From assembly GCA_964472755.1 (NCBI GenBank), contig CAYYMF010000005.1, positions 3,386 to 67,385 of the forward strand: 64,000 nt of DNA. Reading direction: 5' to 3'. The position numbers were made by a program, and so were the translations under genes. Shown here in pieces: positions 728-51,405 of this stretch. Each line of letters starts with the position of its first letter. Positions within the stretch are counted from its first letter, which is position 1. This DNA comes from an uncultured Chitinophagales bacterium (GTDB lineage: Bacteria; Bacteroidota; Bacteroidia; Chitinophagales; JADIYW01). The notes under the pieces were generated by a model that saw nothing but the letters and a program-made list of their open reading frames with translations, searched no databases and was not told where the DNA came from.

Positions 728-1870
728 ATGAAATTTGCCACTAAAGTAATCCACGCAGGAATTGAACCAGATGTGAGTTCAGGAGCGATAATGACGCCAA
801 TTTTCCAAACCTCAACTTATGTGCAACAAAGTGTAGGTGTTCACAAAGGTTTTGAATATGCACGAACTCAAAATCCAACTAGAAATGCATTACAAAATCA
901 ATTAGCTGCATTAGAGAATGGGAATTTTGGAATTTCTTTTGCAAGTGGTTTAGCTGCAACTGATGCCATTTTAAAATTATTAAAAAGTGGTGACCATATT
1001 ATTTCTTGTAATGATTTATATGGCGGCACTTATCGTATTTTCAATAAAATATATGGCAAATTAGGTATCCAATCAACGTTTGTAGATATGAATACGATTC
1101 AAAATATTAGTGATGCCATTACGCCAAACACTAAATTAATTTGGGTAGAAACGCCAACCAATCCAATGTTGAATTTAGTAGATATTGAAGCTGTGGTAAA
1201 AATTGCAAAACAACATCATATTTTGGTTTGTGTCGACAATACTTTTGCCTCTCCTTATCTACAAACACCTTTAGATTTAGGTGCAGATATTGTTATTCAT
1301 TCGGCAACAAAATATTTGGGTGGACATAGTGATGTAATTCATGGAGCGATAGTGATAAAAGACAAAGCCATTGCAGATGAATTGTATTTTATTCAAAATG
1401 CAAGTGGTGCAGTTCCTGGTCCACAAGATTGTTTCTTGATTTTAAGGGGCATTAAGACTTTGCATTTAAGAGTACAACGTGCTTGTGAAAATGCTCAAAA
1501 AATTGCAGATTTTTTAGTGGCACATCCAAAAGTTGAAAAAGTAAATTATCCAGGATTAAGTACACATCCATCGCACGAATTAGCAAAAAAACAAATGCGA
1601 GGATTTGGTGCAATGGTTTCTTTTTCATTAAAAGCAGATACATTAGCAGCGGCAGATAAAGTATTATCTTCCACTAAATTATTTTCATTAGCAGAAAGTT
1701 TAGGTGGTGTAGAATCTTTAATTGGACACCCAGCTACAATGACACACGCCTCTATTCCTTTGGAGGAAAGAAAGAAAACTGGTGTGGTGGATTCCTTAAT
1801 CAGATTAAGTATTGGAGTCGAAGATGCCGATGATTTAATCGCAGATTTAGAACAAGCTTTGAATGCTTAA
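728..1870 (+). CDS. Cys/Met-metabolism PLP-dependent enzyme (cystathionine gamma-synthase / beta-lyase / gamma-lyase family)
   Basis: 380 aa. It carries the PLP-lysine motif SATKYLGGHSD and family-typical N- and C-termini (KVIHAG..., LIRLSIGVED). Confidence 0.85.
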   Translation: MKFATKVIHAGIEPDVSSGAIMTPIFQTSTYVQQSVGVHKGFEYARTQNPTRNALQNQLAALENGNFGISFASGLAATDAILKLLKSGDHIISCNDLYGGTYRIFNKIYGKLGIQSTFVDMNTIQNISDAITPNTKLIWVETPTNPMLNLVDIEAVVKIAKQHHILVCVDNTFASPYLQTPLDLGADIVIHSATKYLGGHSDVIHGAIVIKDKAIADELYFIQNASGAVPGPQDCFLILRGIKTLHLRVQRACENAQKIADFLVAHPKVEKVNYPGLSTHPSHELAKKQMRGFGAMVSFSLKADTLAAADKVLSSTKLFSLAESLGGVESLIGHPATMTHASIPLEERKKTGVVDSLIRLSIGVEDADDLIADLEQALNA

Positions 1871-1895
1871 ATAAACCTTTCAACTTTTCTTGAAA

Positions 1896-1937
1896 TAAAA
1901 AAAGAGGCTGCCCATTTTGGGCAGCCTCTTTTTTTAT
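1896..1937. terminator. Bidirectional intrinsic terminator between convergent genes
   Basis: GC-rich hairpin agaggctgccc-attt-tgggcagcctct with an A-run on the 5' side and a T-run on the 3' side. Confidence 0.8.
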
Positions 1938-1955
1938 TTATTTTCTATTTCTAAA

Positions 1956-2468
1956 TTAATGGTGATGTCCGCCTGGTCCGTGTACATGTCCATGCTCAAT
2001 TTCTTCAGGAGTTGCAGGTCTTACATCAGCAACTGTAACTGAAAAATTCAAATCTTTTCCAGCTAATGGATGATTGAAATCCATCACTACATTATCGTCA
2101 TTGACTTCAACAACAATACCTTGAAATTGGTTGCCATCATTATCCATCATTGGTAAAACATTACCCACTTTTACCATTTCTGTATCTATTTTTCCATTTT
2201 CATCATGGAAAGATTCTGCTGGTATGTGAGCTATATTTTTCTCATCATGAACACCATAACCATTTTCAGCTTTGATAGTAAAACTTACAGAATCTCCAAC
2301 TGTTTTCCCAGCTAAATTTTGTTCAAACTCAGGCAATAACATTCCTGCACCGTGAATAAAAACCAAAGGTTGGTCTTGAGATTTATCTGCAACGGTCATA
2401 TTTCCGTCGTGCTCAACTTGTAGTTCGTAGTGGACACTTACCACCATGTCTTTTTGAATTAACAACAT
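1956..2468 (-). CDS. slyD: FKBP-type peptidyl-prolyl cis-trans isomerase SlyD
   Basis: 170 aa with an FKBP/IF-domain layout and a His-rich tail (HGHVHGPGGHHH) characteristic of SlyD. Confidence 0.85.
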   Translation of the reverse strand: MLLIQKDMVVSVHYELQVEHDGNMTVADKSQDQPLVFIHGAGMLLPEFEQNLAGKTVGDSVSFTIKAENGYGVHDEKNIAHIPAESFHDENGKIDTEMVKVGNVLPMMDNDGNQFQGIVVEVNDDNVVMDFNHPLAGKDLNFSVTVADVRPATPEEIEHGHVHGPGGHHH

Positions 2469-2622
2469 TGTAAAAATTTTTGCAAAGATACGTGAAATAT
2501 TTGAGAATAACTTATTCCTAAATTATTGGTACTTAATCGTATTCTTAATTATATGTCTTAGAAACACCTTAATATCATTTTTTCTTATTGTAAACTTTAT
2601 AAGCATTCATTTCATAAGTCCT

Positions 2623-2630
2623 AATTTTGT
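2623..2630 (+). promoter_or_regulatory. Candidate -7 box TAATTTTG
   Basis: Matches TAnnTTTG and ends 6 nt before the ATG at 2637. Confidence 0.4.
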
Positions 2631-2636
2631 AGACTG

Positions 2637-3830
2637 ATGCTTATGAATACATCAAATCCTAAAATATCAAAAACAGCCTACCCTATTCTATTAGCAATTG
2701 CAATGGCTCATGGACTAAATGATACCATACAGTCTGTAATTCCGGCTTTGTATCCAAAACTAGAACAGCGATACGATTTAACCATGACACAAATTGGAAT
2801 TATTACGCTATGTTTTCAGTTAGCAGCATCAATTTTTCAACCAATTGTCGGTGCTTATACAGATAAAAATCCCAAACCTTATTCTCAAGTTTTAGGTATG
2901 TTTTTCTCAGGAATGGGCATTATTGTATTAGCCTATGCACCAAGTTATCTTTGGATTTTATTGGCAGTTACTTTAGTAGGCATAGGCTCTTCCATTTTTC
3001 ACCCAGAATCATCAAGAGTGGCATTTATGGCATCTGGAGGCAAACGAAGTTTGGCACAATCTATATTCCAAATTGGTGGCAATACTGGTGCAGCTATGGC
3101 TCCATTATTGGTAGCTTGGATAGTTATTCCAAATGACCAACACTATATTATTTGGTTTTTATTAGTTGTTTTAACAGCAAAAGCAATTTTATTTTATATC
3201 GGAAAATGGTATAGCAAAATATTAAAAGCAGAACAAAAAGGCAAAAAGAAAACTATCATTTTGCCTAATTTAACTCAAAAACAAATCACTATTTCAGTGA
3301 TTATTTTATTGCTCCTAATATTTTCAAAATTCTTCTATATGGCATCAATTACTAGTTATTTCCAATTTTATACGATGGACAAATTTGGTTTAACAGAAGT
3401 ACAGGCACAAATCTATTTATTTTATTTTCTATTTGCGGTTGCTATTGGAACATTATTAGGTGGTTTTTTTGGAGACAAATTTGGCAGAAGATACGTAATT
3501 TGGTTTTCCATACTTGGAGCTGCTCCGCTTTCCCTTTTATTACCTTATGTTGGTATAGAATGGACTGGTATTTTAATTATATTAATTGGTTTAATATTGT
3601 CTTCTGCATTTCCTGCAATTTTAGTTTATGCTCAAGAATTATTACCAAAAAAATTGGGTATGGTTTCAGGTTTATTTTATGGTTTTGCTTTTGGAATGGG
3701 TGGTTTAGGTTCTGCTCTTTTAGGTATCCTTGCAGATAAAACAAGTGTAGAATATGTCTATTTTATCTGTTCATTCTTACCTTTAATTGGATTAATTGCT
3801 TATTTTTTGCCAGATTTGAGAAAGCAATAA
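2637..3830 (+). CDS. MFS transporter (Fsr-like)
   Basis: 397 aa with about 12 hydrophobic segments and an MFS-type loop motif (GAYTDKNPKP). Confidence 0.75.
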   Translation: MLMNTSNPKISKTAYPILLAIAMAHGLNDTIQSVIPALYPKLEQRYDLTMTQIGIITLCFQLAASIFQPIVGAYTDKNPKPYSQVLGMFFSGMGIIVLAYAPSYLWILLAVTLVGIGSSIFHPESSRVAFMASGGKRSLAQSIFQIGGNTGAAMAPLLVAWIVIPNDQHYIIWFLLVVLTAKAILFYIGKWYSKILKAEQKGKKKTIILPNLTQKQITISVIILLLLIFSKFFYMASITSYFQFYTMDKFGLTEVQAQIYLFYFLFAVAIGTLLGGFFGDKFGRRYVIWFSILGAAPLSLLLPYVGIEWTGILIILIGLILSSAFPAILVYAQELLPKKLGMVSGLFYGFAFGMGGLGSALLGILADKTSVEYVYFICSFLPLIGLIAYFLPDLRKQ

Positions 3831-3916
3831 CTCTTTTTAAATCTTAAATCTTCTCATTACTTAAAAGTAATTTATTTATTTTAGCAATTTGTTAATTTGG
3901 TGCCATTGAATTTTCT

Positions 3917-5149
3917 ATGCAAATCAATTCGAATAAATTTATAAAGCCATTACTATTCATTGCTGTACTTATTGAGTTTTTTTTAACTGTATATATTATT
4001 AAAATACCTTTAGAAAATAAAAAATTAAGTTCAATCATTTATTTTATTTCAGGGATTTCTATTGGCTTGTTATTCTTACTAAATATAAAAGTTAGAGAGC
4101 AACCAAAAATGATAGCAATGAGATATGCACATCATATTTACTATACACTCCTAATTCTAATTTTTGGGTACTTTATTTATCAAATTAATTTATTCTTTTA
4201 CAGCTATCCTTTGAATTACAAATGGGCAGATATGTTGCCCATTATGAAAATTATGGCTGAAAGGTTTATTCATAATGAAAATCCGTATAATCCAATCTAT
4301 GAAATATGGAATGGAATGGAGCCAATATATTTACCAGCAATGTGGATTTTATATAGTATTCCTATTGCCTTAAAAATAGATATCCGATGGATAAATATTA
4401 TCGTAATGCTATTTGGCATTTTTCTGTTTTTATATAAAAGTGATAAGAAAATACAAGTACTTGATTTTTATGTTTTAGCATTAGTCGCCTATTTTTTAAT
4501 TGAAAGTTTGCATCATAAAAATCAAGATTGGTATATCTTAACAGAAGAACCATTAATTGTTGGTTACTATCTCATTCTTGCTTTTGCACTATTCAAAAAT
4601 AAACCTATTTTGATTGGTATTGCAATTAGTTTATGTTTATTGAGTAGATACATTTTATTGTTTTGGTTTATAGGCTACCTATTATATGTTTATAAAGACA
4701 AAGTGTTCCTAAAAAAACTCCTGCTTACAACGATAATTTTAAGTATTTCATTATTTGTTATCACTCAGGCTTATACACAAATTGAGGTATTTTTAAATAC
4801 CCCAAAAGGCTATATAAATTTTATGTCCTCATCTTTTGGAGAAGGTGTATATAATACAACTATTAAAAAATCATTAGGCATCGCTAAGTTTTTTAAAATT
4901 ACACAATTGGGTTATTTACATTCCTTATCTATGATTTTTATGCTGATAGTTCCAATTTATCTATTCTATTTTTATAGAAACCTTGGCGTAACAACAGAGA
5001 TAAAAAATAAATATGCTATTGGCATCCTTAAATTAAGCTTAGTATTTTTTTTAAATATGCTAATCATACCAATGACCTATTTGTTTATAACATCTACCTT
5101 GTTTTCAATTGCCTTATTAAGTATAGTTATTAATAAAAAGGCAACGTAA
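3917..5149 (+). CDS. Polytopic membrane protein, possibly a GT-C-fold (DUF2029/GT87-like) glycosyltransferase
   Basis: 410 aa and very hydrophobic. The first large loop, WADMLPIMKIMAERFIHNENPYNPIYE...YLPAMW, resembles the acidic-loop/...PY pattern of GT87-type enzymes. This is recognition by eye only. Confidence 0.4.
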   Translation: MQINSNKFIKPLLFIAVLIEFFLTVYIIKIPLENKKLSSIIYFISGISIGLLFLLNIKVREQPKMIAMRYAHHIYYTLLILIFGYFIYQINLFFYSYPLNYKWADMLPIMKIMAERFIHNENPYNPIYEIWNGMEPIYLPAMWILYSIPIALKIDIRWINIIVMLFGIFLFLYKSDKKIQVLDFYVLALVAYFLIESLHHKNQDWYILTEEPLIVGYYLILAFALFKNKPILIGIAISLCLLSRYILLFWFIGYLLYVYKDKVFLKKLLLTTIILSISLFVITQAYTQIEVFLNTPKGYINFMSSSFGEGVYNTTIKKSLGIAKFFKITQLGYLHSLSMIFMLIVPIYLFYFYRNLGVTTEIKNKYAIGILKLSLVFFLNMLIIPMTYLFITSTLFSIALLSIVINKKAT

Positions 5150-5151
5150 AT

Positions 5152-7266
5152 CTATTTTCCATAAACACAAAAATCTGATAAATAAATCTGATTACCATTA
5201 ATAGTAAATCTAAGTTTCTTATATTTGTTATCAATACTTAATTCGTAATCCACACAAATCCAACCATCTTTATAATTATAAGTATTTGTATGAGATTCTC
5301 TCCAATCTTTTATAAAAATCTCTTTATTATTTTCATCGATTGAATACATAGAACAAATCGGAATACTAGAAACTTTGAAAGCATTTGGCGTGTACCAAAA
5401 TAAGATCCTAAGTTTATTATATGTTTTGCTGTTCAAGTCTAATTCTAAAATTTTTGTTGTTTGGTTGATTAATAATCCAGATTTATTTCCATTATTAAAA
5501 GTTTCTTGTTCGAGTAAGGTATAAGATGAATCAACCCAAAATACACCATTATTCTTATTGGTTCCTATTGAATTTAAGTCAATTTCCAAGAGTGCAATAT
5601 CATTGATACTATCAATAAATTTAGCATTCTGCACCAATGGAATATCGTCATTCAAACGTTCTGTTTTTAATAAAACTAATTGCTTTTTATTTGGCTTAAA
5701 TTTTTGAACAATTGGTTTTGGCATAGTATAAAATCCAGACAGTTGGAAAATTTGCATACAATTATCAAAACTTACTCTTGAAGAATGTACATTTGCCATA
5801 GGCAAACCTGTAAAATAGGAAACCCAGAAACTAGAAATTTTTGCATTCCAATCATTATCTATCCATAGTTTTTCTGTTCCTTCAGTAGATGGCGGATAGA
5901 CAATTATGCTTTCATATTCACTAATATTATCAAGTTTTCTTGTCAAGTTATCAGTGTAATTTTTATACGAATTATAAGCATCTTTATTACCATAACTATC
6001 GAATCTATTCTTCAAATAATTTGATGTATTATAAATATCAAACATTGTAATTAGACAAAAAATCCAAAATAATACTTTAAAAACATAAGCTTGATTTTTG
6101 TGATAAAGCTTCTCTATATAGACAAAAACAAAAACCATATAAACAAAATAGAAAACAAAAACAAATCGGCCTGTTCCTCTAAATTGTTTGAAAGGATTAA
6201 TAAAAGCAAAGAAATCTTCATTCCATCTAAACGGAATATAAAAAGCAAATACCAAAATAGGCATTGCTGCCAATACCCAAAGTTGAATAGAATCTCTTTG
6301 AATTTTGATATTTTTATGGGTATAAATATATCGAGTAAGATAAAATACCGAAATCAATAAAATAAAAATTCCAAATACAGTAATATAAGCATGTCCTTCA
6401 GTATATGATGGAACTATAGATGGGAATTTTTTAATAAAAAAATCTTTTATTGCACCATTAATTGGCAAGAGTAAATCGTACCAATTAGAACTAAAAGCAT
6501 TAGCACCCCAAGCTATTTTTGGTCTATCAGTCGTTGTGTCTGTCCACAAAATGCTACTATAAAAAAGTAAAAAAGCAATTATTGGAAAAACAAAATGTAC
6601 TGTTCTTTTTTTATAAAACAACAATAAAAGAACCTCGTATGAAAGCAAAAGCAATACGACCATAAAAAGCAGATATGGATGAATAAATCCGACAGTACTT
6701 AGAATGATAGCATAGAAAAAATAATTTATATTACTTGTTGTAATTTGCAAACGCCACCACCAAAAAAATGGAATTACAGCGATAGACCCTAATGCAAAAT
6801 GGTCGCCAATTCGATAGATTTGTGGTGATAATAACACAATCACAACTGTTCCAACAAATGCTATGAACAAGCTAACTTTGAAGTATTTTAAAATCAGAAA
6901 AACAAAAAATGCTGCAAAAAATATATTCAGCAAAATAATCAGATGAATATAAATAATTGGATTTTCAAACTTAAAATTAAAAACAGATTCTATTAGCCAT
7001 ATCAACCAAACATAGAATGGTTGTGCATCTACATAAGTAATATGCTCTCCAAAAGGATACAACATTCCATTGAAAAACAATCCTTTTCCATATTTCAAAT
7101 AATAGCTAAATGTATAGAGATTTTTTAGTCCATCACCAGAACCATCAATGATATTATTTCCAAGTGGAAAGAATATTTCAGTTGTCAAAATGCAAAAAAT
7201 GAACAGTACGAAAAGTGCTGTAAAAAATGCTCCAAAGCTTGGTTTTATTTTTTCAGATTGGAACAT
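5152..7266 (-). CDS. Large polytopic membrane protein with a C-terminal soluble domain (YfhO/GT-C-like candidate)
   Basis: 704 aa. The N-terminal ~420 aa are multi-TM, with DGSGDGLKNLY in the first loop. The C-terminal ~280 aa are hydrophilic. Confidence 0.4.
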   Translation of the reverse strand: MFQSEKIKPSFGAFFTALFVLFIFCILTTEIFFPLGNNIIDGSGDGLKNLYTFSYYLKYGKGLFFNGMLYPFGEHITYVDAQPFYVWLIWLIESVFNFKFENPIIYIHLIILLNIFFAAFFVFLILKYFKVSLFIAFVGTVVIVLLSPQIYRIGDHFALGSIAVIPFFWWWRLQITTSNINYFFYAIILSTVGFIHPYLLFMVVLLLLSYEVLLLLFYKKRTVHFVFPIIAFLLFYSSILWTDTTTDRPKIAWGANAFSSNWYDLLLPINGAIKDFFIKKFPSIVPSYTEGHAYITVFGIFILLISVFYLTRYIYTHKNIKIQRDSIQLWVLAAMPILVFAFYIPFRWNEDFFAFINPFKQFRGTGRFVFVFYFVYMVFVFVYIEKLYHKNQAYVFKVLFWIFCLITMFDIYNTSNYLKNRFDSYGNKDAYNSYKNYTDNLTRKLDNISEYESIIVYPPSTEGTEKLWIDNDWNAKISSFWVSYFTGLPMANVHSSRVSFDNCMQIFQLSGFYTMPKPIVQKFKPNKKQLVLLKTERLNDDIPLVQNAKFIDSINDIALLEIDLNSIGTNKNNGVFWVDSSYTLLEQETFNNGNKSGLLINQTTKILELDLNSKTYNKLRILFWYTPNAFKVSSIPICSMYSIDENNKEIFIKDWRESHTNTYNYKDGWICVDYELSIDNKYKKLRFTINGNQIYLSDFCVYGK

Positions 7267-7284
7267 TAAATTTATTTATTGTTC

Positions 7285-8439
7285 TTATTTTTCCAATTGC
7301 AATTCTTCGAAAATCATCTTCAATTCTTTATAAATATGATCTTTTTCAAAACCATATTGCTCTAAACTGTATTCATGTTTGCTACTATATTTTCTAGACT
7401 TTTGAGTTTCGGCAGTCAATTTTTCTAAAAAAGTTGGTGTAACTTCCAACTGCAATTGGTTATAAATTTTCAGAACCGTTTCTTTTGGATTTTTTATCAA
7501 ATCGGTATAAGGTATGGTAATTAAATTTTCTTGTTTAAAGTTTTGCTTTTGTTCATAAAAATATTTGTAATAAGCAATTCCAACTTCGCCCCATTCTCTA
7601 TAAGCTTCAGAATTTTCTGGTACTTCAGGATAAAATGTATTCCAAGGTTCAGCAAACATACTTGTAAAAGAAGGAATTGCTTCATAAGGATTTCTAAGTA
7701 GGAATATGATTTTCACATCTGGAAAAATATCGTGCAACATCTGTAAACGCCCTGTACTCATTACAGTTTTACATAGAAACATCTTATCATATCCTAATGC
7801 ATACATCCATCTTTGAATAGTTGCCTTATAAAATATTTTCATCTGATCATTAGCCTTATCATCTAATTTGTCAGGAATATAAAGCTCTTTAAACGCTTTT
7901 AAATGAGGTGTAATTAATCCTATACTTGGAGAAATTCCTGAAACAAAATGCAAACCTTCATCTTCCTCCGTTTTATTAAATCCTGTTGCGTGAATATCGT
8001 CCCAAGCACTAAACATTTTATTGTCTATATAGTCAAAAAACTTACGCATCGGGCGACCAATCTTCTTATCTATTTTACCAAAAAAATCTATCATCCTAAA
8101 CAAAGTAATAGAAGGCAAAATAGTATGATACAATAGATTATATACAAATTTATCTTCATCCATACACATCAAACGATGCAAGAAAGTTGTTCCACTTCTT
8201 GGATTGCTTATAATAAAAACAGGCTGTTTGATCTCAATATCTTTGTAGTTTGGAAACATCAATTCATCGATTAATCTGAATAGGACATTTACAAATGCAA
8301 CAATGACAACAATTATTAATCCATAAGCAATACCAATAAAGAAATTCTTTATGGTAAAATACTTTATACAATGTAAATAGACAAACTTTAAATGCGTTTT
8401 TGCTCTTGTATAAAAAACCGATGAATCAATAAAAACCAT
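7285..8439 (-). CDS. Membrane-anchored sulfotransferase
   Basis: 384 aa. One N-terminal TM segment (FFIGIAYGLIIVVIVAFVNVLF) is followed by a PAPS 5'-phosphosulfate-binding loop (PVFIISNPRSGTTFLHRLM). Confidence 0.75.
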   Translation of the reverse strand: MVFIDSSVFYTRAKTHLKFVYLHCIKYFTIKNFFIGIAYGLIIVVIVAFVNVLFRLIDELMFPNYKDIEIKQPVFIISNPRSGTTFLHRLMCMDEDKFVYNLLYHTILPSITLFRMIDFFGKIDKKIGRPMRKFFDYIDNKMFSAWDDIHATGFNKTEEDEGLHFVSGISPSIGLITPHLKAFKELYIPDKLDDKANDQMKIFYKATIQRWMYALGYDKMFLCKTVMSTGRLQMLHDIFPDVKIIFLLRNPYEAIPSFTSMFAEPWNTFYPEVPENSEAYREWGEVGIAYYKYFYEQKQNFKQENLITIPYTDLIKNPKETVLKIYNQLQLEVTPTFLEKLTAETQKSRKYSSKHEYSLEQYGFEKDHIYKELKMIFEELQLEK

Positions 8440-8494
8440 ACGTTATTATCTACAAAGATAGGTCTTTTAGAGAAAAAATTGTAGCTATTGGTTA

Positions 8495-8881
8495 TTATTT
8501 TTGGACAGTGTAAAATTGCTCACTTAGAATATATCCTTGTTCATCTAAAACCGATAAAATAAAATCACCAGGTTCTTTTAATTCAAAAAAGGTAATTGAT
8601 TCAACTTGTCCTTTTTGTACGGGAAATTCTTTTCCTTCGATTCTAATAAAAATATTTCCAACACGTTTACTAATAGAAATTTTATACGTTGTATTAAATG
8701 GATATTTGTCTTCATTATTATAATATACAAATACTTTTTTATCAGCATTTGTATTCCAACTTTGTGAGGTTTCCTTTGGAATTACATCTCCATTTTTTCT
8801 ATATAAAATAATATTTCCTGAAAATCCTACAAAAGTAGAACAACATAAAATAACAATGCACAAGAGTTTAATTATTTTCAT
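8495..8881 (-). CDS. Small secreted/lipoprotein of unknown function
   Basis: 128 aa with an N-terminal signal peptide (MKIIKLLCIVILCCSTFVG). I recognise no motif. Confidence 0.5.
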   Translation of the reverse strand: MKIIKLLCIVILCCSTFVGFSGNIILYRKNGDVIPKETSQSWNTNADKKVFVYYNNEDKYPFNTTYKISISKRVGNIFIRIEGKEFPVQKGQVESITFFELKEPGDFILSVLDEQGYILSEQFYTVQK

Positions 8882-8932
8882 AATTCAAACTTATTCAATT
8901 TTGATACACTTGTTCACTTAATTATCAACAAG

Positions 8933-9598
8933 TTATTGATAGTTCATCTGTCTCAAAATCCATCTTTGTCTTCTCCCAACATATCCAGACGGATTTTTAA
9001 CTCCCCATTTTCTTGGATTTGGCAAAATTGCAGCCATTAATGCAGCATCACTTTTTGTAAGCGAAGCCGCAGATTTATTAAAATAATACTCCGAAGCTGC
9101 TTCAGCACCATAGACACCAATACCCATTTCAATGACATTCAAATAAACAGTCATTATTCGTTCTTTACTCCAAAACAATTCGATTAATGCTGTAAAATAA
9201 ACTTCTAATCCTTTACGTATCCAATTTCTTCCTTGCCATAAAAATACATTTTTAGCACACTGCTGACTAATGGTACTACCGCCTTTTATCTTTCTACCTT
9301 TCTCATTATTTTTTGCAGCTTTTTTTATTGCTTCTAAATCAAAACCATAATGGACATAGAACTTTTGATCTTCAGCAGCAACAACTGCTCTTTTTAAATT
9401 ATTCGATATTTTATCGCCAGATCGCCACTTATATTTTAAAATTGGAGATTTGCCTTCTATTAAAAACTCCCCACTTCGAATCAACATCAAAGGTGTTATT
9501 GGAATTGGTGCAAACCGAAATAAAATTACAGTTAGAATACTCAAAACAAAAAACAAATAAACTATTCTTTTTAATATTCTAAAAACTGAAGTTAGCAT
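8933..9598 (-). CDS. mtgA: Monofunctional biosynthetic peptidoglycan transglycosylase (GT51)
   Basis: 221 aa with an N-terminal TM segment and GT51 motifs [14 protein letters not shown] and [12 protein letters not shown]. Confidence 0.9.
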
Positions 9599-9655: not shown

Positions 9656-11011
9656 ATGACTACAAATAATTTTACAACAATCCCAATTGTCAATATTTCA
9701 ATATTTGAATTACTTAAAAATTCAGCAAATATAAAATTAGATTTTTTCAAGGATATGCATACCAAATATGGGAACACTTTTCAATTAAATATTTTAGACA
9801 GAAGGGCTGTACTTTCAACTGAACCTGAAGTCGCAAAATATATTTTGGTGGACAATAATAAAAATTATACAAAAAGTTTTGCTTATGACATTATAAAAAT
9901 TTTCTTAGGCGAGGGATTATTGACCGCAGAAGGTGAATATTGGAAAAGACAAAGACGATTGGCACAACCAGCATTTCATAAGCAAAAATTAGATTTGATG
10001 TTTTCTAATATGCTCACAGAAACAGAAAAATCAATCTCTAAAATTAATAGATATGCAGATACTGAATTGCTCTTTGATTTTAATAAAGTTCTCTATGAGC
10101 TGACGCTAAATATAGTCAATAAAACATTGTTTTATAATGAAGTTGGAAATACAACTGATGCTGTCTATGATTTAGTTTCGCAAGCTAGCGAATTTATTAC
10201 GGATAGAATTAACCAACCAATTCGAATGCCAGATTGGATACCAAGTCCACAAAATTTAAGAGAAAAAAAAGTATTAAAATCAATGGATAAGGTATTTTAT
10301 GGCATAATAAAAAAGAGACGTAACACTACATCATCACACGAAGATTTATTATCTATGTTAATGGATGCAATTGATGAAGATACTGGAGCAGGTATGACTG
10401 ACAAACAATTAAGAGATGAAATTTTAACGATTTTTGTTGCAGGACACGAAACTACGCACAATGCTTTAGCTTGGATTTTTTATCTTTTAGATAAAAATTC
10501 TGATAAATTAGAAATATTATTAAATGAAATTGATGAACATATTACTGATGATAATATTGATGCCTTAATTTTTAGAAAAATGCCTTATTTAAAAATGGTA
10601 ATTGAGGAAGGTATGCGTATCTTCCCACCAGCTTGGATACTTGGAAGAAAAGCCATAGAAGATGATAATATTAATGGTTATGAAATCAAGAAAGGCACCA
10701 ATGTCTTATTGCCAATTTACTTAATACATCACGACAAAAATATTTGGAAAAATCCTGAAAAGTTTATACCTGAACGTTTTGAATCCGAGCAAATCAAGAG
10801 TAGACATAAATATGCTTATTTTCCTTTCGGTGGCGGACCAAGATTGTGTATTGGAAATAATTTTGCTATCCAAGAAATGCAAGTTGCTTTGTGTTTAATC
10901 TTAAAGCGTTTCCACGTTTCAATAGACAAAAATTTTCAACCAGAAATGGATCCGTTGGTTACTTTACGTCAAAAACAAATCATGTTTGCTAAAGTAAGTT
11001 TAAGAAAATAA
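9656..11011 (+). CDS. Cytochrome P450
   Basis: 451 aa with the heme-thiolate loop FPFGGGPRLCIGNNFA, the I-helix AGHETT and an ExxR motif. Confidence 0.9.
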   Translation: MTTNNFTTIPIVNISIFELLKNSANIKLDFFKDMHTKYGNTFQLNILDRRAVLSTEPEVAKYILVDNNKNYTKSFAYDIIKIFLGEGLLTAEGEYWKRQRRLAQPAFHKQKLDLMFSNMLTETEKSISKINRYADTELLFDFNKVLYELTLNIVNKTLFYNEVGNTTDAVYDLVSQASEFITDRINQPIRMPDWIPSPQNLREKKVLKSMDKVFYGIIKKRRNTTSSHEDLLSMLMDAIDEDTGAGMTDKQLRDEILTIFVAGHETTHNALAWIFYLLDKNSDKLEILLNEIDEHITDDNIDALIFRKMPYLKMVIEEGMRIFPPAWILGRKAIEDDNINGYEIKKGTNVLLPIYLIHHDKNIWKNPEKFIPERFESEQIKSRHKYAYFPFGGGPRLCIGNNFAIQEMQVALCLILKRFHVSIDKNFQPEMDPLVTLRQKQIMFAKVSLRK

Positions 11012-11392: not shown

Positions 11393-11617
11393 TTATAATT
11401 TTTTAAGTTGCTTAAAAATAAAATAGAATCCAACAGCCAATCCAAATAAACACATAACAACTGTAGCAAATGGTAATTTAAGTGCAATTCTTTTGTCAAT
11501 CTGAATTCCTATAACTGTAAAAATACCTATGGTAATTAAAAGTTCAAAAGCCATTCCACTAAATGCGAGTAATTGCTGTCGGAGTCCTTTGTTCTTATCC
11601 GATTTTTTCAGTTGCAT
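11393..11617 (-). CDS. AtpZ/AtpI-family small membrane protein
   Basis: 74 aa with two TM segments. The pattern LLAFSGMAFELLITIGIFTVIGIQIDKR...PFATVVMCLFGLAVG resembles the ATPase_gene1/AtpZ family. Confidence 0.55.
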   Translation of the reverse strand: MQLKKSDKNKGLRQQLLAFSGMAFELLITIGIFTVIGIQIDKRIALKLPFATVVMCLFGLAVGFYFIFKQLKKL

Positions 11618-11993
11618 CTTTACTAATTGCTGTATTATTCTTTTTATTATGCAATAAAGAACCTAAAATATCTGCTCCATTTTCAACAATTAGCGTATTA
11701 TATTTTATATTTCCTTCAAAAACTGCTGTAGATTTAAAATGAAGATTTTCCTCTGCAATAATATCTCCAATTACTGTTCCTTCTACCGTCAAATCTGAAC
11801 ACTTGATATTACCTTCTACTCTTGAAGTTCTACCAATAACGACTTTAGAAGTACAAACTATATTTCCTTTAACATTGCCATCAATTCGCATATCACTATT
11901 TGCCTGAATATCTCCATTGATATTAGTATTGTCATTAATATGATTAGCTACTAAACTAGAAGCATTATTATTAGAATTTTTTGAATTAAACAT
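11595..11993 (-). CDS. Bactofilin (polymer-forming cytoskeletal protein, CcmA-like)
   Basis: 132 aa. It shows the repetitive beta-helix pattern GN(I/V)xxxxxVxIxxxxxVEGNI typical of bactofilins. Confidence 0.8.
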   Translation of the reverse strand: MFNSKNSNNNASSLVANHINDNTNINGDIQANSDMRIDGNVKGNIVCTSKVVIGRTSRVEGNIKCSDLTVEGTVIGDIIAEENLHFKSTAVFEGNIKYNTLIVENGADILGSLLHNKKNNTAISKDATEKIG

Positions 11994-11996
11994 AAT

Positions 11997-12860
11997 TTAC
12001 TTTTTATAATATTTTTCTACATTTATAGGAATTCCTTTGTACCACAATTCATACTCTAAATTATTTTGAGCATCAGCAGTTCCAATTTCCTCGCCACTTT
12101 CTACAAAATTAGTACTTTTTTTGCTTACTTGTTTAATATTTCTATACTTAGAAACTAAATCACCTTGGTGTTGTATAATTACAGTAAAATCTCTATTCTG
12201 CTGTTCATCGATTGATAAAATATAACCATCTATCGTTGCAATAATTGATTGAGCATTAGGTGTTTTATAAATCGTTGTAAAAGCATTTTTACTGTTCTTA
12301 TATTTTGATACTATCGAAGCATTTACAGGCGGAACGGCTTTTAAAGCCGCTAATGTATTACTCGTTTTTTTGTATTGTAAATTATCATACAACTCAGCAT
12401 TTGTCAATCCTTTTTCAATATCTTTAATTAGTTTATGCTCATCAGGTGAAATTTGAACCAGCACATCTGGATCGACAATTACTGGACTAATATTTTCATC
12501 TAATGACTTGACTTCTATCTTATCCGTTAAAATATTTTTTAGATTTTTATTGTACTTTTCATTAGCCTCAATTTTATCTTCAACTGCTTCTGTTTTTAGT
12601 TTCAAGTCTATAATTTCTTTTCGACTATCCACAGTTCCATAGCCTGGAATATATTGCTTTAAAGGAGTATAAGCAATAAAAAGGAAATTCAACAAAGTCA
12701 ATATTGCGATTAAAATTCCAGAAACAGTAATAACATTCAATCTATTGAGTTCAAGAACAAACTTTACATCATAAGTTTTCTCTTCTACAACTTGAAAGCG
12801 ATAGACATTTTTTAGTTTTTGCCACCATTGTTTCCATCTATTATCTTTTACTTCGCTCAT
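11997..12860 (-). CDS. Membrane-anchored degenerate LytM (M23-like) domain protein
   Basis: 287 aa with an N-terminal TM segment and a coiled coil. The C-terminal M23-like fold has no metal ligands at the expected positions (HxxxD -> AFTTIYKT; HLHFE -> LEYELW). Confidence 0.6.
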   Translation of the reverse strand: MSEVKDNRWKQWWQKLKNVYRFQVVEEKTYDVKFVLELNRLNVITVSGILIAILTLLNFLFIAYTPLKQYIPGYGTVDSRKEIIDLKLKTEAVEDKIEANEKYNKNLKNILTDKIEVKSLDENISPVIVDPDVLVQISPDEHKLIKDIEKGLTNAELYDNLQYKKTSNTLAALKAVPPVNASIVSKYKNSKNAFTTIYKTPNAQSIIATIDGYILSIDEQQNRDFTVIIQHQGDLVSKYRNIKQVSKKSTNFVESGEEIGTADAQNNLEYELWYKGIPINVEKYYKK

Positions 12861-28714: not shown

Positions 28715-28776
28715 TCTTTAGAATAGTAATAAAAATTTGTTCTATTCATTTAGAATAGAAATTTGCATGATATTTG

Positions 28777-28784
28777 TACATTTG
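28777..28784 (+). promoter_or_regulatory. Candidate -7 box TACATTTG
   Basis: Matches TAnnTTTG and ends 6 nt before the ATG at 28791. It lies inside the ORF-track TTG-started extension. Confidence 0.4.
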
Positions 28785-28790
28785 ATTTTT

Positions 28791-29966
28791 ATGAAGCGTA
28801 TCACATATCTTGGACTAATATTATTTTGCCTTTATTCTAATTTTTCTTTTGGCAAAGAAGTAATTGTGGCAGCAGAAAGGACAAAGGAATATTTGCCATT
28901 ATTACAAAATAAAAAAGTAGGATTGGTCGTTAATCAAACTTCAGTTGTTGGCAATACACACCTTTTAGATACTTTAATTGCATTAAAAATAAATGTAGTC
29001 AAAGTTTTTGCACCTGAACATGGATTCCGAGGAACAGCTGATGCTGGCGAGAGTGTAAAAAGCGGTATTGATGCTAAAACAAAAACACCAATTATTTCAT
29101 TATATGGCAATAATAAAAAACCCAAACCAGAACAATTAGTTGATGTAGATATTTTATTGTTCGATATTCAAGATGTGGGCGTTCGTTTCTATACTTATAT
29201 TTCTACTTTAGAATATGTAATGGAAGCTTGTGCTGAAAATAATAAATCTCTCATCGTTTTAGATAGACCCAACCCAAATGGATATTATATCGATGGTCCT
29301 ATCTTGGAAACTACCCAAAAAAGTTTTATTGGAATGCAACAAATTCCAATTGTTTACGGAATGACGATAGGAGAATATGCTCAAATGTTGAATGGAGAAA
29401 AGTGGCTAACTAATAAAGCTCAATGCAAATTAACTGTTATTAAAAATCAAAACTACGACCACAATACTTTTTATAGTTTACCTATAAAACCATCTCCTAA
29501 CTTACCAAATATACAAAGTATTTATTTATACCCAAGTTTGTGCTTTTTTGAAGGCACCAATACTGTAAGTTTGGGCAGAGGAACGGATTTCCCATTTCAA
29601 ATTTATGGGAGTCCAGATTTTCCTAAAAATTTATCTTATAATTTTACTCCAATACCAAAAGAAGGCGCCAAAACCCCACCTTTACTAAATCAAAAATGCT
29701 ATGGATATAATTTATCAGAAATAAATTTAGATACTTTAAAACAGCAAAAATTTACTTTAAAATATCTTATTAATGCTTATCAATTAAGCAACTCAAAGGC
29801 TAATTTTTTCACTTCATTCTTTGAAAAATTAGCGGGAACTTCAACCTTACGAAAACAAATTGAAAGTGGAATGAATGAAAATGCTATTAAAAAAACTTGG
29901 CAAAAAGATTTGAATTGCTTTAAATTAATTCGTAAAAAGTATCTACTTTATCCTGATTTTGAATAG
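28791..29966 (+). CDS. namZ: DUF1343-family exo-beta-N-acetylmuramidase (NamZ-like)
   Basis: Motifs VGLVVNQTS, FAPEHGFRG and DIQDVGVRFYTY. The ATG at 28791 gives a signal peptide (MKRITYLGLILFCLYSNFSFG). Confidence 0.75.
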   Translation: MKRITYLGLILFCLYSNFSFGKEVIVAAERTKEYLPLLQNKKVGLVVNQTSVVGNTHLLDTLIALKINVVKVFAPEHGFRGTADAGESVKSGIDAKTKTPIISLYGNNKKPKPEQLVDVDILLFDIQDVGVRFYTYISTLEYVMEACAENNKSLIVLDRPNPNGYYIDGPILETTQKSFIGMQQIPIVYGMTIGEYAQMLNGEKWLTNKAQCKLTVIKNQNYDHNTFYSLPIKPSPNLPNIQSIYLYPSLCFFEGTNTVSLGRGTDFPFQIYGSPDFPKNLSYNFTPIPKEGAKTPPLLNQKCYGYNLSEINLDTLKQQKFTLKYLINAYQLSNSKANFFTSFFEKLAGTSTLRKQIESGMNENAIKKTWQKDLNCFKLIRKKYLLYPDFE

Positions 29967-31537: not shown

Positions 31538-33913
31538 TTATTTCGTTTTTTTCTTTAGCAAAAGTGTGTGTTTTTTATGTTCCTCCACTTTTTTTCTAGA
31601 AAAACACATTGCAATACTTTCGCCTTTAAACCATTTATCTAATTGATTTTTATAAAATGGACTAGCCATATTGGCACTATTTCCGAGAGGCATAATAATC
31701 GTCGAGTTATCAAAATCTGCAAAGTCAATAGTTTGCCTATACGAAACTGAATTTAATTCTCCGCCATAAGCATTTTCTGCCATTACGTACGTTTGAAATG
31801 GTGTATCTGTATCTCCACCAATTGGAAATGGACCAACATTAAATACTTTGTCCAATGGCGGTTTTACAGAAAATGCATGAGGAAATACAATTGCATGAAC
31901 ATTACCCCAATTCCATTTTTTAGGATTTGTACCAAAATTTAATTTCAACCAATCAATTCCATATTTAATACCTGTTTTTAGTACATGTTCTTTGCCTCCT
32001 GCATTCTTTAACAAGATAGAATCTGGATTGTCTAATATTCTGAAAAGTGCTACGGTATTGTGTCCAAGGAATGCATTTAGAGGTTGAAAAATCTCATGAA
32101 ATCCTGCTCCCAACAATTCTTTTACTAAGTTTTTATCTTCAATATTTCTATCGTAAATATATTTTACCATTTCCTTTTTGCAGACTTTATACAAAGTGCC
32201 TTCAATTTGTTCAGGTCGCAATACGCCATCCCAATTTAGAAGCATTTGTACATATTGTTGAAGTTCTGCATTCGCCATATCAATATTGATATAGTAATCT
32301 TTAAATTGATTTGCAGGCAAACACGTCCAATCCATTTGCATTTCAGTAAAATCTTTTGGGCTTAAATTAGCTCTACCTTCAATCATTTTTTCCAAACGAT
32401 TCGCACGATAACCATTCATATAAATATCACCAAGAAAATATGGATAATTATCATCTACAATTTTATGGTTGGCCGTAATTACATGACCTTGTTGTGGATT
32501 TAAAACGTGTGGCATTTCTTCAAATGGAACAAAATCTGACCATTTATTTTCGCTTTTCCAACCTGGCATTGGCACAGAAGCAATTTGCTTATCTCTTATG
32601 GGTACTTTTCCTGAATTATAATAACCAATATTGCCTACAATATCTGCATAAACTATATTTAAACCAGGAGCTTGAATACACTCGACAGCTTTTACAAAAT
32701 CATTCCAATCTCTTGCCTTGTTTAGATTGAACCAACCTTCAAACATTTTTCCTGGTCGAAAAGCCATAGAACTTAATGTATATGCTTGTGCTTTATGGTT
32801 TGTAACATGAGAAATTAAAGTACCGTTTACTGTACTGATTACTTTTTCAATATGTGGCATATTTTCCCCTTTGATATAGATTTTTTCTTCTATAATCTCT
32901 GAGTCCATAATTTTTCCATCATACATATAAGTTTTCATCGTTTCGTCTGTAAATTTCTCTACATAAACATCTTCAATATCGGTAAAAGATAAAGTAATTC
33001 CCCAACCTATATTATCATTATGTCCAATCAATATCGCTGGAATTGCAGGACAGGAAACGCCTGAAACATGGTAGTCTTTGGTGTGAATATGCATCTGATA
33101 CCAAATATTCGGATTTTTAAGTGTTAGATGTGGGTCATTACATAAATATGGCTTACCTGTTTTCGTTTTACTTCCATGAATTGTCCAAGCATTACTTCCA
33201 CTTATTTTTGGAATATATGGCCCATTCATTGCATTGAATTTATTATCAATACCAATGGTATTAAATTCTACACCTTTGGGTAAAGTTACTGGATTGTTTT
33301 CTGGATAAGAATTATCTAACTCCATAGCTGCATCTAATCCGACAAGTTCTATCAGTTTCGCTCTAATGATTTCATCATACCAACCAAAAGTCAATAAAGA
33401 TGACAACATTTTAGAAAAGGCACAAACATCAATAGGATTCCATAATTCTGGTTTTAAGCCTAACAATTTATATTCTACAGGAAATTTTGAAGTATTATTT
33501 TGGATAAAAGCATTAACGCCGTTACAATATGCCTTCAGATAAGATTTTAAATCATCTGTCAATAACTCCCAATCTTTTTTGCCTATTCTATCATAACCAA
33601 AAGTTCGAGCTATACGGTCGGCATCTAAGGCATCTTTTCCGATAATTTCAGCTAATTTACCACGAGCCGCACGCCGATTCAAATCCATTTGCCACAATCT
33701 GTCTTGTGCATGAATGTAACCTTGAGCAAAAAGTGCATCTTCTAATTTATCTGTATAAATATGAGCAATTCCCCATTCATCACGTATAATTTCTACTTCA
33801 TTGCTCAAGCCATCTACATAAATATTTCCGTCAATTTTGGGTAATGCAGCACGACTCATTTCTTTAATTATTGGTTTGAGTACTGTACCTGCTATATTAT
33901 TGAGTACTGACAT
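31538..33913 (-). CDS. Penicillin/AHL-acylase family Ntn-hydrolase
   Basis: 791 aa. The autoproteolytic nucleophile context is ISGSNAWTIHG, and the family-typical N-terminus is RDEWGIAHIY. Confidence 0.85.
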   Translation of the reverse strand: MSVLNNIAGTVLKPIIKEMSRAALPKIDGNIYVDGLSNEVEIIRDEWGIAHIYTDKLEDALFAQGYIHAQDRLWQMDLNRRAARGKLAEIIGKDALDADRIARTFGYDRIGKKDWELLTDDLKSYLKAYCNGVNAFIQNNTSKFPVEYKLLGLKPELWNPIDVCAFSKMLSSLLTFGWYDEIIRAKLIELVGLDAAMELDNSYPENNPVTLPKGVEFNTIGIDNKFNAMNGPYIPKISGSNAWTIHGSKTKTGKPYLCNDPHLTLKNPNIWYQMHIHTKDYHVSGVSCPAIPAILIGHNDNIGWGITLSFTDIEDVYVEKFTDETMKTYMYDGKIMDSEIIEEKIYIKGENMPHIEKVISTVNGTLISHVTNHKAQAYTLSSMAFRPGKMFEGWFNLNKARDWNDFVKAVECIQAPGLNIVYADIVGNIGYYNSGKVPIRDKQIASVPMPGWKSENKWSDFVPFEEMPHVLNPQQGHVITANHKIVDDNYPYFLGDIYMNGYRANRLEKMIEGRANLSPKDFTEMQMDWTCLPANQFKDYYINIDMANAELQQYVQMLLNWDGVLRPEQIEGTLYKVCKKEMVKYIYDRNIEDKNLVKELLGAGFHEIFQPLNAFLGHNTVALFRILDNPDSILLKNAGGKEHVLKTGIKYGIDWLKLNFGTNPKKWNWGNVHAIVFPHAFSVKPPLDKVFNVGPFPIGGDTDTPFQTYVMAENAYGGELNSVSYRQTIDFADFDNSTIIMPLGNSANMASPFYKNQLDKWFKGESIAMCFSRKKVEEHKKHTLLLKKKTK

Positions 33914-50142: not shown

Positions 50143-51405
50143 ATGCCATATTTATTCACATCAGAATCTGTTTCAGAAGGACATCCAGATAAAGTAGCAG
50201 ATCAAATTTCAGATGCGCTTATTGATAACTTCTTAGCTTATGACCCATCTTCAAAAGTTGCTTGCGAAACATTAGTTACAACTGGTCAAGTCGTATTAGC
50301 TGGAGAAGTAAAATCCAAAGCCTATTTAGATGTACAAGAAATTGCAAGAGAAGTAATCAGAAATATTGGATATACAAAATCTGAGTATATGTTTGAGGCC
50401 AATTCTTGTGGTATTCTTTCTGCAATACATGAGCAATCTGCGGATATTAATCAAGGTGTAGAAAGAAAAAATCCAGAAGAACAAGGAGCAGGCGACCAAG
50501 GCATGATGTTTGGTTATGCTACTAAAGAAACCGATACTTATATGCCTTTACCTTTAGAACTTTCTCACTTATTATTAAGAGAACTTTCTGCCATTAGAAG
50601 AGAAGGCAAAGTAATGAAATATTTACGTCCCGATGCAAAATCTCAAGTTACCATAGAATATGATGACAATAATCAACCAATAAGAATTGACGCCATTGTT
50701 ATCTCTACACAACATGATGATTTTGGTAAAGAAGCAGCAATGTTGAAACAAATCAAACAAGATGTTATAGATATCTTAGTTCCAAGAGTAATGAAAAAAT
50801 TACCTAAACGTATTCAAGCATTATTCAATAATAAAATAAAATACCATATCAACCCAACTGGAAAATTTGTAATTGGTGGACCACATGGCGATACTGGATT
50901 AACGGGAAGAAAAATCATTGTAGATACTTATGGAGGCAAAGGAGCTCACGGTGGTGGTGCATTTTCAGGCAAAGATCCAAGCAAAGTTGATAGAAGTGCG
51001 GCTTATGCAACAAGACATATTGCTAAACATTTAGTAGCTGCTGGGATTTGCGATGAAGCTTTAGTTCAAGTTGCTTATGCTATTGGTGTGGCTAAACCAG
51101 TCGGCTTATATGTAAATACTTATGGCACTTCAAAAGTAAAGAAAACAGATGGTGAAATTGCTCAAATTATAGGAAGCTTACCTGAATTTGATATGCGTCC
51201 TTATTTTATCGAAAAACGATTTAATTTAAGAACACCTATTTATAGTGAAACTGCTGCTTATGGACACATGGGTAGAGAATCAAAAGTGGTGGAAAAGACT
51301 TTCAATAAAGGAAAAGATAATCAATTAAAAATAAAAGTAAAATTATTCCCTTGGGAAGAATTAAATGCTTTGGCTACTGTAAAAAAGGCATTTGGTATTA
51401 AATAA
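50143..51405 (+). CDS. metK: S-adenosylmethionine synthase
   Basis: 420 aa with [19 protein letters not shown] and GGGAFSGKD. Confidence 0.95.

Follow-up and report, generated by a model that had tools for sequence, protein, structure and literature searches.

The stretch of DNA considered here, called the window throughout, is the whole 64-kb (64,000 nucleotides (nt)) segment analysed from an uncultured Chitinophagales bacterium, and the subject of this account is a group of genes within it that encodes a membrane-anchored sulfotransferase (ST384), two large polytopic membrane proteins (TM704 and TM410), a peptidoglycan glycosyltransferase (MtgA), a small secreted protein (sec128) and a cytochrome P450. 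The metagenome contigs and loci with which the window was compared are designated by L-numbers. The genes, with their lengths in amino acids (aa) and the basis of each assignment, including the open reading frame (ORF) list, are the following:

3917-5149, plus strand: TM410, a 410-aa polytopic membrane protein (ORF list and predicted GT-C glycosyltransferase fold)
5152-7266, minus strand: TM704, a 704-aa protein of predicted GT-C fold and a remote DUF6311 member (ORF list and predicted fold)
7285-8439, minus strand: ST384, a 384-aa membrane-anchored sulfotransferase dependent on 3'-phosphoadenosine 5'-phosphosulfate (PAPS) (Pfam Sulfotransfer_3)
8495-8881, minus strand: sec128, a 128-aa predicted secreted protein (signal-peptide-like N-terminus)
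8933-9598, minus strand: mtgA, a 221-aa monofunctional peptidoglycan glycosyltransferase of family GT51 (TIGR02070, Pfam Transgly)
9656-11011, plus strand: cytochrome P450, 451 aa, divergent from mtgA (Pfam p450)
2637-3830, plus strand: major facilitator superfamily (MFS) transporter, 86 nt upstream of TM410 (Pfam MFS_1, 1.7e-49)

The four minus-strand genes mtgA, sec128, ST384 and TM704 are separated by gaps of 51, 55 and 18 nt, respectively, and TM410 and TM704 are convergent, with their stops 2 nt apart. The coordinates of the six ORFs of the cluster and all four of these gaps are exactly as the original prediction had given them, the motifs it had quoted are present in the proteins (NPRSGTTFLHRL in ST384 and DGSGDG in TM704), its identification of mtgA, the sulfotransferase and the P450 agrees with Pfam and NCBIfam scans, and the secretion it had assigned to the 128-aa protein fits a signal-peptide-like N-terminus read from the sequence. 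The G+C content is 26-30%. The nearest genome, L001 (JACJXS010000010), is also from the Chitinophagales and was assembled from a metagenome; over this region its proteins share 80-99% identity with those of the window. Short-gapped genes on the same strand are commonplace in bacteria, and the layout by itself is therefore not statistically remarkable. Comparison between genomes points instead to a mosaic, which we consider the probable reading of the region: two separately conserved modules, module A (P450, mtgA, sec128 and ST384) and module B (TM704 and TM410), whose adjacency would be confined to a single narrow lineage of Chitinophagales.

The distribution of the junction between the two modules carries most of this argument. 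A sulfotransferase gene with TM704 downstream of it occurs in just three places, the window, L001 and L017, and among 83 sulfotransferase loci (80 returned by a metagenome scan and 3 from exact look-ups) only L017, plus the sister genome L001, has an adjoining gene for a 704-aa protein. Seen from the other side, relatives in which TM704 is 59-61% identical have TM410 and a family 2 glycosyltransferase (GT2) as its partners and no sulfotransferase upstream; in L010 and L011 the genes upstream of TM704 (59% identical) are aldolase genes, and in L007-L009 no remnant of a sulfotransferase was found upstream of TM704. A tRNA suspected at that position in L007-L009 was rejected, as ARAGORN found none. 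The original prediction had joined sulfation and GT-C glycosylation in a single envelope pathway, and this claim fares poorly, the genes being largely unlinked in related genomes both at the 83 sulfotransferase loci and among the relatives of TM704.

Module B, by contrast with the junction, recurs as a unit. The loci of TM704 relatives, found by a genome scan with the 16 closest sequences, show TM704 and TM410 as a convergent pair, 0-8 nt apart, in L001, L007/L008 and L009-L011, where TM704 is 59-80% identical to that of the window, and a GT2 of about 237 aa adjoins TM704 or TM410 in L002, L003, L007, L009-L011 and L012. The arrangement around this GT2 varies: in L007 and L009-L011 a Cys/Met pyridoxal-phosphate (PLP) enzyme gene (metC) is followed by the GT2 and then by TM410, in L002 and L012 a DUF6311 paralogue of 604 aa precedes TM704, which in turn converges on the GT2, in L003 TM704 converges on the GT2 with a distant TM410-like gene 1.5 kb past it, and in L004 a weaker GT2 match (30% identity) lies upstream of TM704; in L005, L006, L013 and L099 TM704 occurs without any of these partners. 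The 604-aa paralogue occupies 6180-7994 in L012 and 8178-9965 in L002, so that in both contigs tandem DUF6311 GT-C genes converge on a GT2. The closest solved relatives of the GT2 are the polyprenyl-phosphate glucosyltransferase GtrB (5ekp, 6e-11) and ArnC (9bhc), and it aligns over its full length, below threshold, with the NCBIfam models for ArnC, PpgS and AglJ. Since the nearest solved relatives of the adjacent GT2 are GtrB and ArnC, the most consistent partner of TM704 is, on this comparison, a synthase of lipid-phosphate sugars, the kind of partner that a GT-C enzyme should have, and the GT2 is the presumed maker of a polyprenyl-phosphate-sugar donor. In the window, slyD and the MFS transporter occupy the place between the metC-like gene and TM410 where relatives have the GT2, and the transporter is linked to TM410 in the window and L001 only.

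TM704 itself has no match to any model in Pfam and NCBIfam. Its relation to DUF6311 emerges from more sensitive comparison: PF19830.4 (hmmscan) gives no match at E<=1 for TM704, and DUF6311 is found in just 3 of 64 family members, yet the profile of the family aligned by hhalign with bona fide DUF6311 proteins gave a probability of 99.9 and an E-value of 3.5e-32 over 489 columns, and a precomputed PF19830 label (PF19830.5, DUF6311) stands on all of the 72 homologues except the weak match P0070. On the strength of the profile-profile probability, and despite the missing PF19830.4 match, TM704 is assigned as a remote DUF6311 member. UniRef calls one DUF6311 protein 'Glycosyltransferase RgtA/B/C/D-like domain-containing protein', and a literature search on DUF6311 returned no papers.

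The AlphaFold2 (AF2) model of TM704, built from a 64-sequence alignment, has a mean predicted local distance difference test score (pLDDT) of 92.5 and a predicted template modelling score (pTM) of 0.92, and it divides the protein into a membrane module at about residues 1-445 and, at about 450-704, a periplasmic alpha/beta domain and a jelly-roll resembling a carbohydrate-binding module (CBM). Foldseek comparison with the Protein Data Bank (PDB) returned STT3, AglB, AftA, ALG12 and EmbB with E-values of 7.6e-6 to 1.1e-3 and probabilities of 0.98-1.0, the top matches being STT3 (8pn9_A at 7.6e-6, 6s7t_A and 6ezn_F), AglB (7e9s), AftA (8if8_B) and ALG12 (9s6t_A). TM704 is thus predicted, with a strong structural match, to adopt the GT-C fold, and the suggestion of such a fold in the original prediction is upheld by the structure prediction that it had called for. 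The C-terminal jelly-roll resembles CBM22, the receptor-binding domain of CDTb and the ligand-binding domain of Eph at about 1e-3 (Foldseek). The DGSGDG motif corresponds to residues 41-46, right after the first transmembrane helix (TM1), in a loop 1 that would be periplasmic to judge from K6 and K8 ahead of TM1; within this loop D45 is invariant in 64 TM704 homologues. D80 is nearly invariant, and H156, E290, R367 and R497 are invariant in the same 64 sequences.

For TM410, the AF2 model is of similar quality (pLDDT 93.8, pTM 0.93), and its 21 best Foldseek matches in the PDB (ranks 1-21, probability 0.41-1.0) are all GT-C enzymes, namely STT3, GPI mannosyltransferase I (GPI-MT-I), ArnT, EmbB, ALG3, ALG12, PIG-U and AftA, with the best TM-score of 0.51/0.52 to GPI-MT-I 9wno_A over 358 columns (probability 1.0, E 0.1). 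A GT-C-like fold of the small PIG-M/ALG3/ALG12 type is predicted on these grounds with moderate confidence, in agreement with the GT-C fold first proposed for this protein, the E-values being 0.09-0.8. The GT87-like loop also ascribed to it finds no sequence support in Pfam or NCBIfam scans: as a candidate family GT87 was rejected, with 0 of 78 family members matching the GT87 model at E<=1 and no GT87 enzyme among the listed Foldseek structures. More generally, neither TM410 nor its 77 aligned homologues match any Pfam GT-C family significantly, and TM410 is also without an NCBIfam match. The family is large (1107 representative clusters at E<=1e-3, 493 at E<=1e-30), and D105 (in an ADMLP motif), R116, D155, R157, E211 and R244 are invariant in its 78 aligned sequences; D105 comes after the third predicted helix, in a topology drawn from charge distribution alone. 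Comparison of the TM410 and TM704 profiles by hhalign detected no relation between the two proteins.

Domain fusions of TM410 were considered as a clue to its partner and set aside, since the long homologues are tandem duplications and carry no informative partner domains: P0313, P0314, P0315 and P0410 (812-889 aa) duplicate the whole 400-aa module. A further homologue, P0426 (620 aa), has an extra C-terminal beta-rich domain of about 200 aa, the end of which resembles that of the TM704 jelly-roll.

The sulfotransferase belongs to a much more widely distributed family. ST384 matches Pfam Sulfotransfer_3 at 5.6e-26 (92.6 bits against a cutoff of 27) and Sulfotransfer_1 at 5e-12, and has at least 469 homologues, nearly all of them 383-391 aa long. 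NPRSGTTFLHRL constitutes residues 79-90 and contains the 5'-phosphosulfate-binding (5'-PSB) loop PRSGTT (80-85; P80, R81, S82, G83 and T85), which, together with R249 and S257 of the 3'-phosphate-binding (3'-PB) motif, is invariant or nearly so in 43 sequences. A single strong hydrophobic segment at about residues 33-54 forms the anchor, and conservation within the family extends to roughly the first 30 residues; the transmembrane anchor and PAPS loop described in the original prediction are accordingly both in place, with the PAPS motifs intact. In profile searches the best solved relatives are 2zq5_A (384 aa, 5e-20) and 2z6v_A, which we take to be the mycobacterial enzymes Stf1 and Stf9, followed by the CurM sulfotransferase and SULT2 enzymes. 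Several homologues of 46-68% identity carry the JGI name 'omega-hydroxy-beta-dihydromenaquinone-9 sulfotransferase', an automatic annotation that denotes the activity of Stf3. By sequence, ST384 is a membrane-anchored, PAPS-dependent sulfotransferase of Stf type from a broad Bacteroidota family; a literature search for membrane sulfotransferases of Bacteroidota gave nothing specific.

The wider surroundings of this family are those of housekeeping genes, among which, by gene-neighbourhood comparison, it usually stands alone. In about 55 loci with distant homologues (35-56% identity) no TM704 is near and a distant TM410 homologue occurs in L081 only; the neighbours include a class III aminotransferase (Aminotran_3, 20 loci), PolA, mevalonate-diphosphate decarboxylase (MVD), a nucleotidyltransferase (NTP transferase) and murF-alr. 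In eight loci (L016, L034-L039 and L042; sulfotransferase of 50-55% identity) the MVD gene converges on the sulfotransferase gene, which may be a weak hint of isoprenoid chemistry, with collinearity as the alternative. A 132-aa gene (putative, bactofilin-like) and a 287-aa gene (provisionally labelled M23) adjoin the cluster in the window (11595-12860) and also in L001, and distant homologues of both lie at 3417-4732 in L055/L057, about 3.3 kb upstream of a sulfotransferase of 44% identity.

Closer to ST384, within the clade of sulfotransferases at least 60% identical to it, the arrangement P450(-), mtgA(+), an optional sec128 and the sulfotransferase(+) recurs, with the P450 divergent from mtgA. 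In 18 metagenome loci and in L001 mtgA lies directly upstream of the sulfotransferase gene, about 18 such contigs being without GT-C genes, and in 11 loci a P450 gene diverges from mtgA; the P450 and mtgA products there are each about 55-61% identical to those of the window. MtgA scores 286.2 bits against TIGR02070 (cutoff 182.65; 1.6e-85) and 2e-50 against Pfam Transgly; it is an ordinary peptidoglycan glycosyltransferase whose presence looks positional, which bears out the caution of the original prediction that the link to peptidoglycan might be one of position only. The sec128 protein has no significant match to a Pfam or NCBIfam family; homologues of 32-37% identity lie between mtgA and the sulfotransferase gene in L015, L024, L030 and L084, and one of 96% in L001, and the gene is missing from that position in most other mtgA-sulfotransferase loci, so that on gene order it is an optional insert. 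L033 and L052 have a gene of the opposite strand interposed between mtgA and the sulfotransferase gene, which counts towards separate transcription within module A.

The P450 (Pfam p450, 3e-93) has the carotenoid hydroxylases CYP97A3 (9e-56) and CYP97C1 as its best solved relatives, and its best NCBIfam matches are terpene oxygenases, all below cutoffs. The candidate that it is an orthologue of CYP128 was rejected: BLASTP against CYP128A1, the query sequence being taken from the supplement of PMC7404182, gave 24% identity over 167 aa with E 1e-9, which is generic P450 similarity. The P450 gene is absent from L001, L014 and L032, in all of which the sulfotransferase stays, and comparison of these loci indicates that it has been repeatedly lost or moved. 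In L001 (7375-7449) the gene of a 123-aa membrane protein directly abuts mtgA without a P450, and in L014 and L032 AhpC abuts mtgA.

The Bacteroidetes -7 promoter element has the consensus TAnnTTTG, and copies starting at 9622, 8893 and 8460 precede the start codons of mtgA, sec128 and ST384 by 24, 12 and 21 nt, respectively, reading TAtcTTTG ahead of mtgA and ST384; another (start 2622) lies ahead of the MFS gene, all four thus falling in a range of 12-24 nt, with a background rate of the motif of 0.0011 per nt per strand. TM704, TM410 and the P450 gene have no TAnnTTTG in the 150 nt ahead of them. Because the element precedes mtgA, sec128 and ST384 and not TM704, the sequence suggests separate promoters for the first three genes and read-through into TM704 from ST384. 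A scan for sigma-70 promoters stayed at background, with 47 sites against 52 expected, and between the genes of the cluster no terminator-like hairpins were found, those few that the scan returned lying inside coding regions.

The mosaic reading takes these gene identities, predicted folds, conserved residues and synteny patterns together as follows. Module B would be a periplasm-facing pair of GT-C glycosyltransferases: a cytoplasmic GtrB/ArnC/PpgS-like GT2, encoded elsewhere in the genome, would load a sugar onto polyprenyl phosphate, the lipid-linked sugar would be flipped across the membrane, and TM704 and TM410 would then move sugars onto an envelope glycan, the C-terminal CBM-like domain of TM704 holding the acceptor as in the Emb and AftD enzymes and the invariant D45 of loop 1 serving as catalytic acid or base. 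Given the CBM-like domain, the module probably acts on a glycan, and its activity would be polyprenyl-phosphate-sugar-dependent periplasmic glycosylation of the Gtr/Arn/Emb kind. Module A would be an inherited block of genes, in which ST384 most likely adds sulfate, on the cytoplasmic side, to a hydroxyl of a membrane lipid or of an intermediate linked to lipid. For both modules the chemistry as a whole, its donor and acceptor, and the topology are inferred.

Several observations weigh against this reading. The conservation of module A is, by comparison of the contigs, partly general collinearity, because the contigs that show it share their flanks too (IF-2B with AhpC at one end, holA with PGM at the other); the window, for its part, keeps the four-gene block although both of its flanks differ from those of the other contigs. 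No GT2 partner was found in the 64-kb window (search at E<=1e-3), which leaves the donor side hypothetical in this genome, and the Foldseek E-values of TM410 are weak. The topology of ST384 is a further difficulty: averaged over 43 members, the flank N-terminal to the anchor carries 3.1 K/R and 0 D/E and the C-terminal flank 2.6 K/R and 2.3 D/E, from which the positive-inside rule predicts an N-in orientation with the catalytic domain in the periplasm. PAPS is a cytoplasmic metabolite, and we know of no bacterial PAPS exporter; because of this location of PAPS, the predicted periplasmic domain conflicts with sulfation on the cytoplasmic side.

The remaining objections concern the junction. The spacer between ST384 and TM704 is tight in the window (18 nt) and in L017 (about 30 nt), and TM704 has no promoter-like motif of its own; the spacer of 200 nt in L001 was also counted on this side. 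In L017, four genes at 913-3967, 64-86% identical to genes at 57939-60991 of the window, lie directly upstream of the sulfotransferase and TM704, mtgA and sec128 having been replaced, which places a rearrangement breakpoint just upstream of the sulfotransferase gene. As these upstream genes have their counterparts about 50 kb away in the window, the junction must have survived the rearrangement. This retention is the pattern expected of a small operon of the two genes, and it argues for possible lineage-specific coupling. Conservation of the gene neighbourhood, which the original prediction had put forward for checking, therefore has a divided outcome, the order of sulfotransferase and TM704 being retained across the rearrangement in L017 and absent from the other contexts of either gene.

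These same facts are the substance of an integrated pathway, in which ST384 and TM704/TM410 would act on the same molecule in this lineage, either with ST384 sulfating a polyprenyl-phosphate-linked sugar at the cytoplasmic face before the GT-C enzymes transfer it to an envelope glycan, much as ArnD acts on undecaprenyl-phosphate-linked 4-deoxy-4-formamido-L-arabinose (Und-P-Ara4FN) before ArnT, or with a glycan built by the GT-C enzymes carrying a sulfate that was added earlier. The 18-nt gap lacking a promoter-like motif, the shared order in the window, L001 and L017 with its survival in the last of these, and the fact that both proteins are membrane-bound would all be accounted for. The adjacency is, however, missing from all other TM704 contexts (L002-L013 and L099) and from about 80 other sulfotransferase loci, the sulfotransferase family is far more widespread than that of TM704 (469 against 72 matches), the L001 spacer is 200 nt long, and the window has no GT2 or flippase. 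We regard an integrated pathway as unlikely on balance.

The second alternative, given by us about the same low standing, concerns the substrate of ST384 only and is compatible with the mosaic reading: the P450 and ST384 would form a pair that makes a sulfated, hydroxylated isoprenoid, in analogy with Cyp128 and Stf3, the P450 hydroxylating a terpenoid (a menaquinone tail or a carotenoid) and ST384 sulfating the new hydroxyl, with the GT-C genes and mtgA as bystanders. The precedent is that cyp128 and stf3 of Mycobacterium tuberculosis lie in one operon, with hydroxylation followed by sulfation (PMC7404182). The Stf3 activity name given by JGI to homologues of ST384, its nearest solved structures 2zq5 and 2z6v, the closeness of the P450 of the window to terpenoid and carotenoid hydroxylases, and the occurrence of both genes within about 2.5 kb in 11 contigs and the window all point the same way. 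On the other side, the JGI name is automatic and the contigs with both genes also share flanks; in addition, the P450 is no CYP128 orthologue, it lies on the opposite strand from ST384 with mtgA (and sec128) between, it has been lost in L001, L014 and L032 with the sulfotransferase kept, and distant sulfotransferase homologues occur without a P450 nearby.

A more specific form of the coupling between the two modules appears to us still less probable, namely that in this sub-lineage ST384 was recruited into a small operon with a GT-C enzyme of DUF6311 type and, together with TM410, builds a sulfated envelope glycoconjugate. The sugar linked to polyprenyl phosphate would then be sulfated ahead of flipping or, should the topology predicted from charge be right, sulfation would take place at the periplasmic face. 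A pathway of this kind, with a recruited sulfotransferase and a GT-C enzyme making a sulfated glycoconjugate, is to our knowledge undescribed in Bacteroidota.

Finally, sulfation in the periplasm, with the catalytic domain of ST384 outside as in a type II Golgi sulfotransferase and acting on peptidoglycan or another polymer alongside MtgA, sec128 and the GT-C proteins, would suit the flank charges of the 43 members, which predict N-in and C-out, and the periplasmic domains of its neighbours mtgA, sec128 and TM704, but we hold it to be very improbable, as the canonical PAPS motifs are kept with their substrate in the cytoplasm and, in general knowledge, no exporter for it, the flank-charge prediction is weak for a single anchor, and linkage of the neighbouring MFS transporter is limited to the window and L001.

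Beyond the cluster, a scan of 20 of the larger ORFs, from 14 to 52 kb, returned housekeeping genes only, and among them no genes for PAPS synthesis (including APS kinase, acting on adenosine 5'-phosphosulfate, and sulfate adenylyltransferase), carotenoids or menaquinone were found. Genes of sulfur metabolism lie at 728-1870, 40615-41820, 42787-44910 and 50143-51405 (two Cys/Met PLP enzymes, a sulfite/nitrite reductase and an S-adenosylmethionine (SAM) synthetase), and a NamZ-type exo-beta-N-acetylmuramidase and a penicillin-amidase-family protein, which belong to cell-wall and amide turnover and are unrelated to the cluster, lie at 28737-29966 and 31538-33913.

All components of the locus come from known superfamilies (GT-C, PAPS sulfotransferase, GT51 and P450), and what is new is descriptive: a GT-C-fold family without a Pfam model, a divergent branch of DUF6311 that carries a CBM-like domain and is partnered by a GT2, and a conserved family of membrane-anchored, Stf-like sulfotransferases in Bacteroidota. 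Three families common in environmental Bacteroidota thereby acquire a predicted fold, candidate catalytic residues and a most consistent genomic partner, which for the GT-C enzymes is a polyprenyl-phosphate GT2. Because the sulfotransferase family is widespread and conserved among housekeeping genes, it suggests a sulfated membrane component so far unrecognised in many Chitinophagales and Sphingobacteriales, and if in this lineage the sulfotransferase and the GT-C genes truly cooperate, they would yield a sulfated glycan or lipid of the envelope, of which the phylum has no known example.

Of the described systems, the three-component polyprenyl-phosphate-sugar pathways (GtrA/GtrB/GtrC, ArnC/ArnT, CsbB/YfhO and PpgS with its GT-C enzyme) are the closest in organisation to module B, as the relatives of the window have, like them, a small GT2 beside polytopic GT-C enzymes, and the conserved acidic residue in an extracytoplasmic loop of those enzymes is one that TM704 is predicted to share and that TM410 may share. 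They differ in that two unrelated GT-C proteins are here paired convergently, the GT2 is missing from the window and a flippase gene was not identified; furthermore, TM704 and TM410 fall outside the ArnT/PMT_2, YfhO and GtrC sequence families in Pfam and NCBIfam scans. With Emb/AftA/AftD and STT3/AglB, TM704 shares the predicted fold (E 8e-6 to 1e-3) and a C-terminal CBM-like jelly-roll domain, whereas its sequence identity to them is only 10-12%, it lacks, as read by eye, the WWDxG and Emb proline motifs, and it is related to DUF6311, a family without a characterised member. TM410 resembles GPI mannosyltransferase I (PIG-M/Gpi14, GT50) and ALG3/ALG12, being of the same size and having its best structural match in 9wno_A, and differs from GPI-MT-I in a sequence identity of 14% (E 0.1) and in belonging to a bacterial family without a Pfam model.

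For module A, the nearest comparison is with the Cyp128-Stf3 pair and with Stf1 and Stf9. The M. tuberculosis operon of cyp128 and stf3 encodes a P450 that hydroxylates menaquinone-9 (MK-9) and a sulfotransferase, Stf3, that sulfates the product (PMC7404182). Like the Stf enzymes, ST384 is a PAPS sulfotransferase; it has about 384 aa, falls close to them in sequence and has a P450 gene nearby. The P450 of the window is not orthologous to Cyp128, however, and its opposite orientation, with mtgA and sec128 between, means that the two genes do not form one operon. The ST384 protein is further set apart from the Stf enzymes by its clear hydrophobic anchor and by its phylum, Bacteroidota.

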